Positions 58,779 to 63,055 of a stretch of 64,000 bases of DNA are shown piece by piece; the stretch's first letter is position 1; each line of letters starts with the position of its first letter. Location: positions 64,001 through 128,000 of the forward strand of contig DAIDJN010000040.1 of the NCBI GenBank assembly GCA_027451365.1, read 5' to 3'. This DNA comes from Phycisphaerales bacterium. GTDB taxonomy: Bacteria > Planctomycetota > Phycisphaerae > WQYP01. The translations under genes and the position numbers were made by a program. Below the pieces are notes generated by a model. The model did no database searches and had not been told where the DNA came from. It saw only the letters and a program-made list of their open reading frames with translations.

Positions 58779-58790
58779 TTGTGTACACAA
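58779..58790. promoter_or_regulatory. Palindromic operator upstream of the Phd-PIN TA pair
   Basis: Perfect 12-bp palindrome TTGTGTACACAA plus a TACACAAA half-site at 58796. Confidence 0.5.
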
Positions 58791-58846
58791 AAAAATACAC
58801 AAAGCCGGGTACGCCTGCAGACGGTCATTGGGCCAGCGAGGTTTTT

Positions 58847-59134
58847 ATGCGATTTGTGACCATTCGCGCTGTAAGAATGATTGCCGCATCCGTTCTGCGC
58901 AAGTTGCCCCGTGAAGGGGAAGTCGTTCTTACCCACCATAGCCACCCGATAGCCATTGTTCCTTCTGCTGATGAAAGCAATCTGGAAGATACGCTGCGAA
59001 CATTGCGACAAATCCGGGCTCTTCAGGCCGTCGACCGCAGGCAGCGCAGCACTGCAAAACGTGGTGCCGCGCGATTGTCGCGCCGCCGTATTGCCGCGGA
59101 AGTTGCCGCCGTTCGACGGGACCGCAAACAGTGA
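58847..59134 (+). CDS. Phd/YefM-like antitoxin (divergent, possibly decaying)
   Basis: MRFVTIR...EVVLTHHSHPIAI...LEDTLRTLRQIRA...IAAEVAAVRR; GTGA overlap with the PIN gene. Confidence 0.7.
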   Translation: MRFVTIRAVRMIAASVLRKLPREGEVVLTHHSHPIAIVPSADESNLEDTLRTLRQIRALQAVDRRQRSTAKRGAARLSRRRIAAEVAAVRRDRKQ

Positions 59135-59532
59135 GAATTGTGGTCGGCACAAACATCCTTGTGTCCGGCCTGCTTTCGCCTTTCGGGCCACCAGGACAGA
59201 TTGCCTCCGGGATCGCCGTTGGCACTTGGAAAGTCTGCTATCCTGCCCGAATAATGACGGAATACGCGGAAGTGCTTTTGCGGCCTGCGTTCGGTTTTGA
59301 CCCGGGCGATGTCGCCACAATAGTGCGCCAGATTCAAATTGAAGGCGAGCTTTGTGCGCCACCACCAACCGCGATGGTGTTACCGGATCCGTATGACTGT
59401 CCATTTCTCGAAGCGGCGCCCGCAACTTCCGCAGATTACCTGAGTACCGGAAACCTTCGGCATTTTCCCGTCAAATCCCGTCAGGGTGTTGCGGTTGTCT
59501 CACCCGCTCAATTTATCAGGCTTATAAGTTAA
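59131..59532 (+). CDS. PIN-domain toxin (TIGR00305-like), probably inactivated
   Basis: MRIVVGTNILVSGLL (family has D at the G), EY.EVL.RP.F, PDPYD..FLE, TGNLRHFP. Confidence 0.75.
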   Translation: MRIVVGTNILVSGLLSPFGPPGQIASGIAVGTWKVCYPARIMTEYAEVLLRPAFGFDPGDVATIVRQIQIEGELCAPPPTAMVLPDPYDCPFLEAAPATSADYLSTGNLRHFPVKSRQGVAVVSPAQFIRLIS

Positions 59533-59827
59533 CCACCGCATTAAAGCCCTTTTCCAGCAATGGAACATCACACTCCAGCCAGGCCGCAAAAGGGCGTGCG
59601 GACGATACATTAGTTGTTACCTGCTTGTGTCTTTTTTTTTGGACAACAAGTGGCCATCCCGGATGTGATAAGAAAAGAGTCGCGACGGGCGAAGATTGGG
59701 CTAAATATGAAGGACGTCCGATTGTTGACAGCCGGGCGGGAATGAGCAACACTTCTGCCGTGGCTGAGCGGCGTTGACGGATGTTCAAAGAGTAATGCGC
59801 AGAAGCAGGGAAGGCGGCGGACGTTTT

Positions 59828-60709
59828 ATGAGTAAACAAAAAAGGGGCCGTATTGACACTCATGAAGTCGAGCGCGTCCAGCAGATCAAGCGGTTGGTGG
59901 TTATCGCATTGTTTTCGGATGACGAACTCATGGAGCGCTTCGTGCTCAAGGGTGGCAATGCCGTTGATCTGGCCTACCAAATCGGTTGGCGTGCGTCAGT
60001 CGACATCGACCTGTCGATGGCGGACGATTTTCGATCGGAGGATATTGAGGCTATTCGGTTACTTATTGAGAATAATCTTCTGGCTACCTTCCGGCCCGCC
60101 GGCTACGAAATATTCGACGTCACGATGGAGGAACGACCGGAAAAAGTCAGTGCGAGCCTGAAGACATTCTGGGGAGGTTATTTCCTGAGCTTCAAGCTGA
60201 TAGAGGCGGCTAAATACGCGGAGAATTCCGGAAACCTGGAAAATCTGCGCCGGAACGCAGTGCAGATCGGAGCCAGGGGAAAAATCGAAATTGACATCAG
60301 CAAATTCGAGTTTTGTGAGGCGAAAATAGCTCGCGATTTGGAGGGCTATCGGATATTCGTATACACGCCGGAGATGATTGTCTGTGAGAAGCTGCGTGCG
60401 ATTTGTCAGCAGATGCGGGAGTATGGCCCAATCGTTGACCGCCATCGCACCGGCAGCGCGCGGGCGAGGGATTTCGTGGATATTTATCAGGTGATGCAGC
60501 ACTTCAACCTGGACTTAACGACACCGGAGAATTGTTTGCTTCTGCGCAATATTTTCGACGCCAAGCGGGTGCCGCTGGCATTACTGAATCAATTGCCGGA
60601 GTATCGGGAGTTCCACCGCCCGGACTTTGCGGCTGTAAAGGCGACCGTGAAGGCGGGCGTGGTGCTCAAGGATTTCGACTTCTACTTTGACTATGTATTG
60701 GACGTCTGA
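59828..60709 (+). CDS. AbiEii/AbiGii nucleotidyltransferase toxin (type IV TA)
   Basis: LKGGNA, RASVDIDL, IDIS, EMIVCEKLRA, RARDFVDI. Confidence 0.9.
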   Translation: MSKQKRGRIDTHEVERVQQIKRLVVIALFSDDELMERFVLKGGNAVDLAYQIGWRASVDIDLSMADDFRSEDIEAIRLLIENNLLATFRPAGYEIFDVTMEERPEKVSASLKTFWGGYFLSFKLIEAAKYAENSGNLENLRRNAVQIGARGKIEIDISKFEFCEAKIARDLEGYRIFVYTPEMIVCEKLRAICQQMREYGPIVDRHRTGSARARDFVDIYQVMQHFNLDLTTPENCLLLRNIFDAKRVPLALLNQLPEYREFHRPDFAAVKATVKAGVVLKDFDFYFDYVLDV

Positions 60710-60715
60710 CTGCGG

Positions 60716-61606
60716 CTAAAAGCCCTTGGGGATGTGTAGCCGCCACTCCTTGATGTATTGGGTCTCCTTCATGCCGTGCGTGAGGTAAAAGTCGAATTCA
60801 GACGGGAATCTGCGCAGCAGGTCCAGTTGAGCAGGCCTGTACCCGGCTCGCTCCAGGTAGAATCCGATGACCTGGTGATAAGGATAAAGGTAGCCCAGCT
60901 TGTCCAGGGTGGCGGCCAAAACATTGACCGACACCCGCTCCTTGGCGAGCTGGTACGCCTTGGCGACCTCGCTGACGCCCCCCGCGTAGATGGGGCGCAC
61001 GGCGATGTCGATTAACGTGCGTTCAAGTTTGGTGAAACGCAAGCGGCCCAAGGGCTTCCCGGCACCCATAACCGGCTCCTCAATGACCGCGTAGTTGTTG
61101 GTATTCTTTCCACTTATGATGCAGATGCGAAAATCGCTGGTCTCGGCCACGTTGCCCGAGACGCGGACAGGACGGCGCATCGCCAAATCGATGCCTTTTT
61201 GTGTCAATGTACCACCAACCGGCCCGGTGCTTTTCTGCTCACTGTTAAGGTACGTGGTCTTGGGCAGTTGCTCCGTAAGGCCATGAAAGGCCATCGCGGT
61301 GTAGTGGGAAAAATAACATCCTGGCCTGAGCATCAGCATGATTTCGTAAATTGAAGCATCGCCCCAGGCGAAGCGAATCTCCTTCTTGTATGGCTGGGGG
61401 AAAGGGAAGACGATCTTCGATAGCCTGGCCGAGTTGATCAAATACCGGATAAAATCCTGAGTGGTGGTACTCTGGGCGAGGCGCCAAAATTCCCGCTGCT
61501 CCGTGAGGAATCGCGAAAGATCCTTCTGCCGGAAGACCTTCTCCGGTAGTTGATCGAAATAACGGACAATGTCCGGCTTGGCGATGCTGATCCGGGTTCT
61601 ATTCAT
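60716..61606 (-). CDS. AbiEi-family antitoxin / transcriptional regulator
   Basis: YFSHYTAMAFHGLTEQLP, RFTKLERTLIDIAVRP.YAGG..EV, WRL; N-terminal wHTH-like region. Confidence 0.85.
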   Translation of the reverse strand: MNRTRISIAKPDIVRYFDQLPEKVFRQKDLSRFLTEQREFWRLAQSTTTQDFIRYLINSARLSKIVFPFPQPYKKEIRFAWGDASIYEIMLMLRPGCYFSHYTAMAFHGLTEQLPKTTYLNSEQKSTGPVGGTLTQKGIDLAMRRPVRVSGNVAETSDFRICIISGKNTNNYAVIEEPVMGAGKPLGRLRFTKLERTLIDIAVRPIYAGGVSEVAKAYQLAKERVSVNVLAATLDKLGYLYPYHQVIGFYLERAGYRPAQLDLLRRFPSEFDFYLTHGMKETQYIKEWRLHIPKGF

Positions 61607-61616
61607 GGGCCGTCCT

Positions 61617-61897
61617 AGTCACTGGGATTATATATAATCCCAGTGACTGGGGTATGTCAAGGCGTATGGAACGCCTATTTGGCCAAATGATGCGACCAAA
61701 CCACTGCATTTCAGTAAATTGTGATCAGAACTGATAGGCTGCATTAGGTATTATATATAATACCTAATGTCGCAATGATTCGCCTATACGAAATTAGCCA
61801 CAGCTCGCGCGAGACGGGCTAGCAGCGGCGGCCCAAGCCGACACGGTCAAGGTAATTTACCAGTGCATAAGCATTATATATAATGCTTATACACTGG
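61617..61897. repeat. Three palindromes with shared ATTATATATAAT core at 123-bp period
   Basis: 61617-48 AGTCACTGGGATTATA|TATAATCCCAGTGACT; 61742-69 CATTAGGTATTATA|TATAATACCTAATG; 61860-97 CCAGTGCATAAGCATTATA|TATAATGCTTATACACTGG. Confidence 0.95.
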
Positions 61898-62281
61898 CTG
61901 TGTAATTTCAATTCGGCAACCTTGGAAACACATCCTGATCACAAAAGTCATGATTGCCGCGAACCGCCGGCACTTACGCATTCAGCGCGGCGGCCCATGG
62001 CCGGCCTGCGTAATATTCGCCCTACTGAATTGCACCAGCATGGTAAATATCCCCCGCATGAATCGCCGCACTCAGCTTTCGGCCATGCCATCGCCGTAGT
62101 TGTTCGCCATGGATTTCGAAGCAGATTCCCAGGGTGATCGCGTGCAAGGCAGCCATGTCGCCGTTCCAAGCACAACCATTTAAAGCTGTCATCCATACCC
62201 CAGCCGCAGAGGATAATTTTGCATACTGCCCCCCTCGCCGCTGGCTTGCCTAAATGCCGCGCTTGGGGGACGATTCCGCCT

Positions 62282-63055
62282 ATAGCGAAGCTTACCGTAC
62301 AAAAGATTCGTGAACTGGCGCTGGATATTGTGGCACAAACCCCGGGTGGCGTACGCTATCAACCCCTTCGCACAAGAATTCTTGAGCAGCATCCCGAAAC
62401 CAACAGCAACACCATATCCGGCGCAATTTGGAACCTTGACGCTATTTTTCCCGATAAGATTACCAAACCAAGCCGCGGGCTATTTAAGGCGGCAGGTACC
62501 GACCTTGAGGGTGATGTCGTTGCTTTCGGAGTCCCGGTGCAGACGGGATCCAAGGGCAAAAAAATCAACGAATCCGATTTTTACGACGGCTTCGCCGACT
62601 GGCTCCGCGATGACCTTGGCGAGGTAACGGTCGCAAAGAGCCTGGGCGGCGCGTCATTGAAATCCAAATGGGGCACGCCCGATGTCGTCGGGGTGTACAA
62701 GCCGCTGGGACGCGACCTTATCAAATTTCCCCTGGAACTGGTCGCAGCGGAAATTAAAATTGACCCGCAGGCTCCAGTGGTTGCATTCGGACAGGCGATC
62801 GCCTATCGCCTTTTCGCCAGCAAAACCTACATCGCAATGCCCAACACGCTAACCGAAGAAGACCAAAGCAGGCTTGAAGCGCTGTGTATGCTTTTCGGCG
62901 TCGGTCTGGCGCTATTTAACCTGGACCCGGAAAAGCCGGAATTTACCGTCCGGGTACGGGCGCAACGGTTCTCACCGGATATGTTCTACGTAAATGAATT
63001 CGCCGACCGATTGAAGAAATCTGATTTAGAACTCTTTGAAAATCTGTTTGGCTAA
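62282..63055 (+). CDS. N-terminal HTH-like + PD-(D/E)xK restriction-endonuclease-fold protein
   Basis: TPDVVG...EIK...FGQAIAY motif. The apparent N-terminus starts at ATA 62282 after a GGGGGA SD; the alternative start is TTG at 62219. Confidence 0.7.
   Translation: MAKLTVQKIRELALDIVAQTPGGVRYQPLRTRILEQHPETNSNTISGAIWNLDAIFPDKITKPSRGLFKAAGTDLEGDVVAFGVPVQTGSKGKKINESDFYDGFADWLRDDLGEVTVAKSLGGASLKSKWGTPDVVGVYKPLGRDLIKFPLELVAAEIKIDPQAPVVAFGQAIAYRLFASKTYIAMPNTLTEEDQSRLEALCMLFGVGLALFNLDPEKPEFTVRVRAQRFSPDMFYVNEFADRLKKSDLELFENLFG

Follow-up and report, generated by a model that had tools for sequence, protein, structure and literature searches.

The window analyzed here, by which we mean the whole stretch of 64,000 nucleotides from a Phycisphaerales contig, carries an abiEi gene and an abiEii gene that face each other and, upstream of abiEi, three long palindromes (P1–P3). 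The features are as follows:

59774–60709, plus strand: abiEii, nucleotidyltransferase toxin gene, convergent with abiEi; product matches Pfam PF08843 at E 4.7e-23; likely start Met19 at 59828
60716–61606, minus strand: abiEi, encoding a 296-aa winged-helix antitoxin/repressor, the predicted binder of the palindromes
61614–61651: P1, the proximal palindrome, 38 bp with one mismatch; perfect over 61617–61648 (32 bp); 28-bp family unit at 61619–61646
61647–61741: spacer 1, 95 bp between 28-bp units, neither conserved nor repeated
61655–61660, minus strand: TTGACA, resembling the −35 element of a predicted abiEi promoter and separated from the 28-bp unit of P1 by 8 bp
61742–61769: P2, a palindrome of 28 bp without mismatches, the very length of the family unit
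61770–61864: spacer 2, 95 bp between 28-bp units, neither conserved nor repeated
61860–61897: P3, 38 bp, its single mismatch being C·A (position 13, counted from the dyad); perfect part 24 bp; unit at 61865–61892

P1–P3 have no spacer between their arms, and their dyad centers fall at 61632.5, 61755.5 and 61878.5, which gives spacings of 123 and 123 bp; recomputing the coordinates thus bore out the initial annotation of this DNA as to the number, sizes, centers and spacing of the palindromes. The 12-base core that it had seen in all three, ATTATATATAAT, has three matches in the window, where none of 100 shuffles contained any, and three in the whole genome (4,055,293 bases in 88 contigs), all at the abiEi locus. 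Among the 14 perfect palindromes of at least 20 bp in this genome, P1–P3 rank 1, 2 and 5. The edge of P1 lies 10 bp from the abiEi ATG (61606) with the minus-strand TTGACA beside it, both as annotated, and its dyad center precedes the ATG by 26.5 bp, a placement shared with relatives. The two spacers had been described as not being repeats, and indeed show no similarity to each other, the alignment score being below the shuffle mean. That they are diverged tandem copies was rejected for want of any residual similarity; an old duplication is not demonstrable in this genome.

The protein encoded by abiEi is matched by the PADLOC AbiEi models (best E 5.7e-18). It has no Pfam match at E 0.01, PF09407 reaching E 0.012, which is under its cut-off, and weak matches to PF09407 were obtained for 33 of 37 members of the AbiEi subfamily. 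PDB sequence searches with the family profile returned nothing relevant. An AlphaFold2 model built on a 37-sequence alignment has a pLDDT of 94.3 and a pTM of 0.90, and the top Foldseek matches of this model are Rv2827c (1zel, E 2.6e-7, TM 0.58–0.61), the best structural match, and the AbiEi of S. agalactiae (6y8q, E 2.8e-6). Judged by the model, the protein has the AbiEi/Rv2827c fold and belongs to the AbiEi family, with a winged HTH and an AbiEi C-terminal domain. Its gene adjoins that of a DUF1814/AbiEii nucleotidyltransferase, which makes the pair an AbiE type IV toxin-antitoxin module, and the two stop codons are 6 bp apart.

Distribution of the Palindromes

A scan of one genome per species returned 486 AbiEi relatives, from which the best 80 loci, with 46–84% identity, were kept; these 80 of 486 come from Planctomycetota, Burkholderiales, Aminicenantes, Ignavibacteriota, Chloroflexota and others. 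Searching other genomes for palindromes near this AbiEi subfamily had been proposed as a check, and 77 of the 80 loci carry at least one site: 4 have one, 30 two, 32 three, 8 four and 3 five. Of the three loci that lack one, two come without any upstream DNA and the other is a truncated match. When palindromes of at least 24 bp with at most one mismatch were counted in the 80 loci, 203 of 212 fell within −600 to 0 of the abiEi start, 4 lay further upstream and 5 anywhere downstream. AbiEi homologues were also present in 6 of 61 genomes searched (the window's own and five relatives), and the four relatives with a full-length AbiEi match have two long palindromes each, just before the gene.

The module with its upstream sites is found in a viral contig as well, at 41% identity, and in RefSeq plasmids, some of them small; in one of these the abiEi gene is annotated as "hypothetical protein". 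A metagenome pattern scan for two cores 107–137 bp apart returned mostly AT-rich noise with arms of 6–9 bp; arms of at least 14 bp were present in 4 of the 80 metagenome loci that it retrieved, three with AbiEi and one a relic (L142). In the complete 5.6-Mb genome of a cultured betaproteobacterium (behind locus L038), the motif occurs only at the abiEi locus, apart from one chance match with a mismatch. Because 77 independent loci share the same architecture, we exclude an assembly artefact. The comparison indicates that P1–P3 belong to an AbiEi subfamily across phyla and not to one genome.

Anatomy and Covariation of the 28-bp Site

For the anatomy of the site, 207 sites were aligned on their dyads. 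Counting outward from the dyad, the arms are complementary in 96–100% of cases at positions 2–14, in 55% at position 15 and in about 40% beyond, and from this drop after position 14 we take the unit to be 28 bp. This is also the modal site length (72 of 207 sites), with a heavy tail up to 62 bp; many sites are longer than 28 bp with unrelated outer arms, and some orthologous sites keep such extra length while the outer arms are unrelated (44, 46 and 46 bp in L066, L068 and L049). The half-site consensus outward from the dyad is T-A-T-A/G-C-T-n-C-n-t-a-g-n-A, in which positions 2–6 and 8 are informative, while positions 7 and 9–13 carry 0.1–0.4 bits. At positions 9–13 the sites of one locus are only 37–48% alike, yet the arms within a site match almost always. 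The arms of P1–P3 had been called unrelated between copies; their sequences do differ, but they fit the weak family consensus.

To avoid circularity, sites were selected again on the inner 12 bp alone. Among the 150 hits, positions 7–14 were complementary at 91–97% and 121 sites were perfect at all eight positions, as against scores of 0–3 out of 8 for 13 chance matches elsewhere in the loci; two further "control" matches turned out to be true sites beyond the 700-bp limit. The pair-count covariation score, 0.653, was reached by none of 500 shuffles (0.176) and fell to 0.08–0.18 when the partners were slid, and all four Watson-Crick pairs are present at each variable position. Sixteen related locus pairs gave 468 symmetric positions, some of the matches perhaps being non-orthologous, of which 415 were unchanged; among the 53 that differed, 47 were compensated double changes, 5 were single-arm changes and 1 was of another kind. 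Complementarity, pair counts and compensated changes thus all confirm, for the family as a whole, the covariation of the arms that had been noted in the window.

Mismatches over the 2484 pairs at positions 3–14 comprise 8 of G·U type in the sense strand, 9 in the antisense strand and 22 others, and G·U or U·G pairs occur in 0–3 of 150 sites per position, fewer than other mismatches. An Rfam search gave only sub-threshold microRNA-hairpin matches; neither G·U tolerance nor an RNA family match, the marks of a structured RNA, was found. Were an RNA stem selected, G·U pairs would be acceptable on the strand that encodes it. As G·U is tolerated on neither strand, the arm constraint points to DNA, acting on both strands equally, and not to RNA.

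One clade of sites has GCATGCATGC or GCGTTAACGC cores instead of the AT center, and the loci with these GCAT cores form a single clade in the protein tree. Their arms covary as strongly as those of the TATA-core sites. At the AbiEi position aligned to Arg78 (codon at about 61373–61375, minus strand), which falls in the strand that follows the wing, 52 of 56 TATA-core loci encode Arg, but none of the 20 GCAT-core loci does, all of these having Leu, Val, Cys or Ala. This association is suggestive; since the GCAT-core loci form one clade, it amounts to a single co-change on one branch of the tree and we do not count it as independent support.

Position Relative to the Predicted abiEi Promoter

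The proximal dyad typically precedes the start codon by 22–45 bp. A TTGACA-like hexamer flanks the 28-mer on its upstream side at a distance of 8–10 nt in the window and closely related loci, which would place the AT core at the position expected of a −10 box; for the Burkholderiales clade this distance is about 19 nt. An exact TTGAC lies 15–50 bp upstream, in the direction of abiEi, at 19 of 58 proximal sites compared with 2 of 58 on the mirror side. At distal sites the counts are 14 of 149 and 17 of 149, with no conserved −35. The repeats are thus located immediately upstream of abiEi and overlap its promoter as predicted from the −35-like hexamers, and the placement of the proximal one appears to be that of an autorepressor's operator.

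We also note a promoter-like TTTACC-17-TATAAT on the plus strand at 61856–61884, with the P3 core as −10 and directed away from abiEi. A divergent transcript might be controlled by P3 in addition.

Spacing and Growth of the Arrays

The site spacings in the family range from 42 to 546 bp, all but one being at most 290 bp, and 110–119 bp is commonest. The "exact 123-bp periodicity" of the initial annotation is therefore true of this genome and only there. The closest relatives of the window have spacings of 119, 120, 121, 120 and 125 bp, and 123/123 is one value in a narrow, clade-specific range and not a family period. That the range is narrow despite unrelated spacers hints at a distance constraint, for example looping or a wrapped complex. 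A helical-phase test on 130 spacings, from loci that are not independent, gave weak values that did not discriminate between the repeat lengths tried.

Upstream of abiEi in the betaproteobacterial locus (L038:1592–2420) there is a 182-bp tandem repeat of 4.6 copies with 96% identity, each copy containing one 28-bp palindrome, and a sixth site lies near the gene. This is a recent expansion of the array, and arrays can grow by tandem duplication.

The relic L142, on a metagenome contig, has lost P1, spacer 1 and the 5′ portion of abiEi by deletion: L142:1082–1685 aligns with window positions 60934–61012 and 61734–62249, the flanks being 80% identical. Both P2 and P3 have counterparts in it that remain without mismatches over 28 bp and stand 125 bp apart, with compensated differences from the window; for P2 the difference is one compensated pair. 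To the right of P3, the segment 61925–62145 is also 80% identical in L142 and has 65–81% matches in two related genomes, one of which contains three of them. The segment resembles a repeat or a conserved element, with overlapping small ORFs on both strands that have no Pfam family.

Gene Neighborhood

An AbiEii homologue adjoins abiEi in 72 of the 80 loci and is convergent in all 72 (among loci L013–L091); in some relatives the stops of the two genes overlap, and the convergent layout is likewise seen in the RefSeq annotation of a plasmid. The bicistronic operon of abiEi and abiEii given for characterized AbiE systems in the part of the literature used here (PMC3985639) is found neither in the window nor in the 72 toxin-bearing loci. 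None of 71 loci carries a half-site of its own upstream of abiEii, only one palindrome of at least 24 bp lies near the upstream region of abiEii in the 80 loci, and in the window no palindrome or half-site precedes this gene. A toxin promoter that shares the operator was rejected on these grounds (0 of 71 loci). Among the flanking ORFs of 61 loci no other cluster is conserved in more than four loci, and the 278-aa ORF and the PIN gene of the window are present in none of the 80 loci. abiEi and the convergent abiEii are the only conserved genes of the module.

The 278-aa ORF (62219–63055) is divergent from abiEi and not part of the AbiE module; as it is absent from all 80 loci, it was rejected as the owner of the palindromes. 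The annotation had named it an HTH-nuclease. It falls into no curated family (Pfam, NCBIfam, PADLOC), and what is left of the name is a language-model lead to clusters auto-named restriction endonuclease, one of them with a HARE-HTH lead. The region directly upstream of abiEii (58781–59532) encodes a Phd/YefM-like antitoxin (weak match, E 3.4e-4) paired with a PIN-domain toxin. The island holds in this pair another toxin-antitoxin module, one that is not conserved with the AbiE module.

Discussion

We suggest that P1–P3, which are copies of a 28-bp site that goes with this AbiEi subfamily, are probably its operators, with two winged-helix AbiEi protomers per site predicted to repress their own promoter. 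The fixed size and the conserved positions are as expected of a protein site. AbiEi operators had been the first of three hypotheses put forward for the palindromes, and the travel of the sites with the subfamily, the promoter overlap and the AbiEi/Rv2827c fold argue for them, binding being predicted; from what is known of the family we infer both the binding of AbiEi and the autoregulation. P1 would be the main operator, which when bound blocks RNA polymerase, while P2 and P3 may be auxiliary operators that serve in cooperative binding, looping or affinity tuning, as suggested by the four repeats of Prv2827c. Because abiEii is convergent and has no sites, it would lie outside the control of the operator. 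The arrays could grow through tandem duplication of a site together with its spacer.

The IR1/IR2 operator of PabiE is reportedly bound by AbiEi also in work of Hampton and colleagues from 2018. According to the parts of the reports that we draw on here, S. agalactiae AbiEi binds two inverted 23-bp repeats, 3 bp apart and with four arm mismatches, that overlap its own promoter (PMC3985639), one winged-helix protomer being placed on each arm of PabiE (IR1 and IR2) in a negative autoregulation (Dy et al., 2014; PMC3985639). S. suis AbiEi likewise binds inverted repeats at its promoter (PMC11062541), and Rv2827c of M. tuberculosis binds four 23-bp repeats, in two inverted pairs between −1 and −131, with graded affinities (Beck et al., 2020; PMC7319586). 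Long inverted-repeat operators, multi-site ones included, have in other words been described for AbiEi-family antitoxins, and the earlier statement that no described element fits was too strong.

The present element resembles PabiE in being a long inverted repeat, AT-rich in the middle, that is placed just before abiEi, overlaps the (here predicted) promoter and goes with the same protein fold. Whereas PabiE has one 23-bp pair with a 3-bp gap in front of a bicistronic operon, we find 2–6 copies of a near-perfect 28-bp palindrome with zero spacer, to which binding is predicted, and a toxin gene that is convergent. Compared by eye, the site sequences are also unlike the S. agalactiae repeats in the published portion that we used. 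With Prv2827c the element shares a multi-site inverted-repeat operator, an AbiEi-family antitoxin and site sequences that differ from each other ("tuning"). The pairs of Prv2827c, however, lie within 131 bp, with gaps of 13 bp and 4 bp, while the sites in the window are about 120 bp apart, with distances reaching 180 bp at other loci, and the parts of its description used here report an operon and no arm covariation, in contrast to the convergent pair and covarying arms of the present loci. We therefore regard the element as probably of the same kind as the known AbiEi operators, what is new being the arm covariation at the DNA level and the conserved convergent toxin. A literature search found no paper on the motif, and among the papers listed none on the convergent layout or on palindrome arrays of this AbiEi subfamily.

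If this is correct, a likely operator has been defined from sequence for a large AbiEi subfamily, with 486 relatives in species-representative genomes that are often annotated as "hypothetical protein". A conserved convergent toxin gene beyond the reach of the operator would change how regulation in this subfamily should be modeled. The arm covariation would furthermore make the site a rare case of a predicted protein-binding site in DNA with the comparative signature that is normally reserved for RNA stems.

A plain operator predicts no match between the arms at the free positions 9–13, and an extra cause is therefore needed for the symmetry. Template switching has been described as converting quasipalindromes to perfect ones (PMC7202029; PMC8604942) and, in the parts of these reports used here, as homogenizing and expanding inverted-repeat arms at promoters (PMC13100816; PMC8604942). 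It predicts copying from arm to arm, few single-arm intermediates and lengthening with unrelated sequence, all of which is seen here. What has been described, unlike the present case, is a source of mutations in E. coli reporters and yeast promoters, and not a mechanism that preserves symmetry over the long term across a family of bacterial operators. We propose, less surely than the operator function itself, that template switching could keep the arms symmetric by copying a change from one arm to the other, and could also lengthen them. The symmetry would be anchored by the selected inner positions 2–8 and by position 14; between these anchors changes would be reverted or copied across, and beyond position 14 the arms would drift, with occasional extension. 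The length tail to 62 bp, the complementarity of 40–55% beyond the unit and the dominance of compensated changes match this proposal. The perfect palindromes of the relic L142 also speak for it, weakly, depending on the age of the deletion and on whether that genome encodes a second AbiEi. Homogenization by template switching is favored over selection for a cruciform, but the sharp edge at 14 bp and the extra length that some orthologous sites keep with unrelated outer arms could equally reflect selection on a stem.

Selection may act on the secondary structure of the DNA, a cruciform or hairpin, which can coexist with AbiEi binding and would be either a supercoiling-sensitive switch of the abiEi promoter or the form that AbiEi recognizes. 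Cruciform-forming palindromes that gate promoters through supercoiling are known from the older literature, and the present sites are like them in being perfect palindromes of about 28–38 bp with an alternating AT center that overlap a promoter. The covariation at free positions is strictly Watson-Crick on both strands and is accompanied by compensated changes between relatives, most sites have an alternating, easily melted AT center, and some orthologous sites retain extra stem length with unrelated sequence. The DNA hairpins predicted for the window have energies of −16.2, −9.9 and −13.7 kcal/mol (z −5.3 to −7.5). Extrusion is hypothetical here, however, and the clade with GCATGCATGC or GCGTTAACGC cores, whose GC-rich centers are poor extrusion nucleators, has the same covariation. 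A unit of fixed size (28 bp) whose inner positions are conserved in sequence is what protein sites in duplex DNA typically show, and the symmetry runs through the central positions 2–3, which a hairpin loop does not need, though these are also conserved in sequence. On balance we consider selection on DNA structure unlikely, and it seems to us slightly less likely still that the 28-bp sites are DNA-structure switches, such that AbiEi binding or promoter activity depends on the extruded or folded state. Should such a switch exist, it would wire an abortive-infection module to the changes in DNA topology that phages cause, and the strict covariation on both strands, seen at about 150 sites across many phyla, would prove by comparison, for the first time, that an operator of bacteria is under selection to form a cruciform. 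With hundreds of sites in which free positions are flanked by fixed ones, the family offers a natural system for the question of template switching versus cruciform selection.

The palindromes could instead be mainly promoter elements, their AT core serving as a −10 box on both strands of bidirectional promoters that have no dedicated repressor. Both strands of the cores do contain TATAAT or TATACT, a TTTACC-17-TATAAT match lies at P3 on the plus strand, and a −35-like TTGAC precedes the proximal site in 19 of 58 loci. The GCAT-core clade, on the other hand, is without a −10-like center, the distal sites have no conserved −35, and a −10 box explains neither the 28-bp symmetry nor the conserved positions 8 and 14. 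We hold this to be improbable.

An array that is transcribed, with hairpins that act in the RNA as processing sites, small RNAs or attenuators for the AbiE genes, was the second of the earlier hypotheses. Whichever strand is transcribed, every site would form a stable stem-loop, and an array upstream of a toxin-antitoxin pair recalls the RNA repeats of type III antitoxins. The lack of G·U tolerance, of an Rfam family at threshold and of spacer conservation between close relatives speaks against it, and the predicted transcription start inside P1 in the window's clade would leave the abiEi mRNA without the whole stem; we give this reading very little credence. Scarcely credible, too, is the third, recombination or telomere-resolvase-like cutting at the sites, and with it parS-like plasmid partition, the acting protein being encoded elsewhere in each case: palindromes that are long, perfect and TA-rich at the center resemble such targets and some carriers are small plasmids, but no recombinase, resolvase or ParB, nor indeed any third gene, is conserved near the module (no flanking ORF cluster in more than 4 of 61 loci), the sites are always placed just ahead of abiEi, the proximal one keeping an almost constant distance to its start, the motif is found nowhere else in the complete genome of L038 bar the mismatched chance match, and neither the spacing nor the cassettes are conserved.

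Returning to the sites as probable AbiEi operators, the auxiliary role of the distal ones, which lack a conserved −35, is presumptive. At the distal sites of four Burkholderiales loci (L040, L043, L044 and L055), two types of 28-bp palindrome with different sequences are mixed in one array, TAATCAG...CTGATTA standing beside TGCTA...TAGCA, which suggests site classes of different affinity or a second binder.
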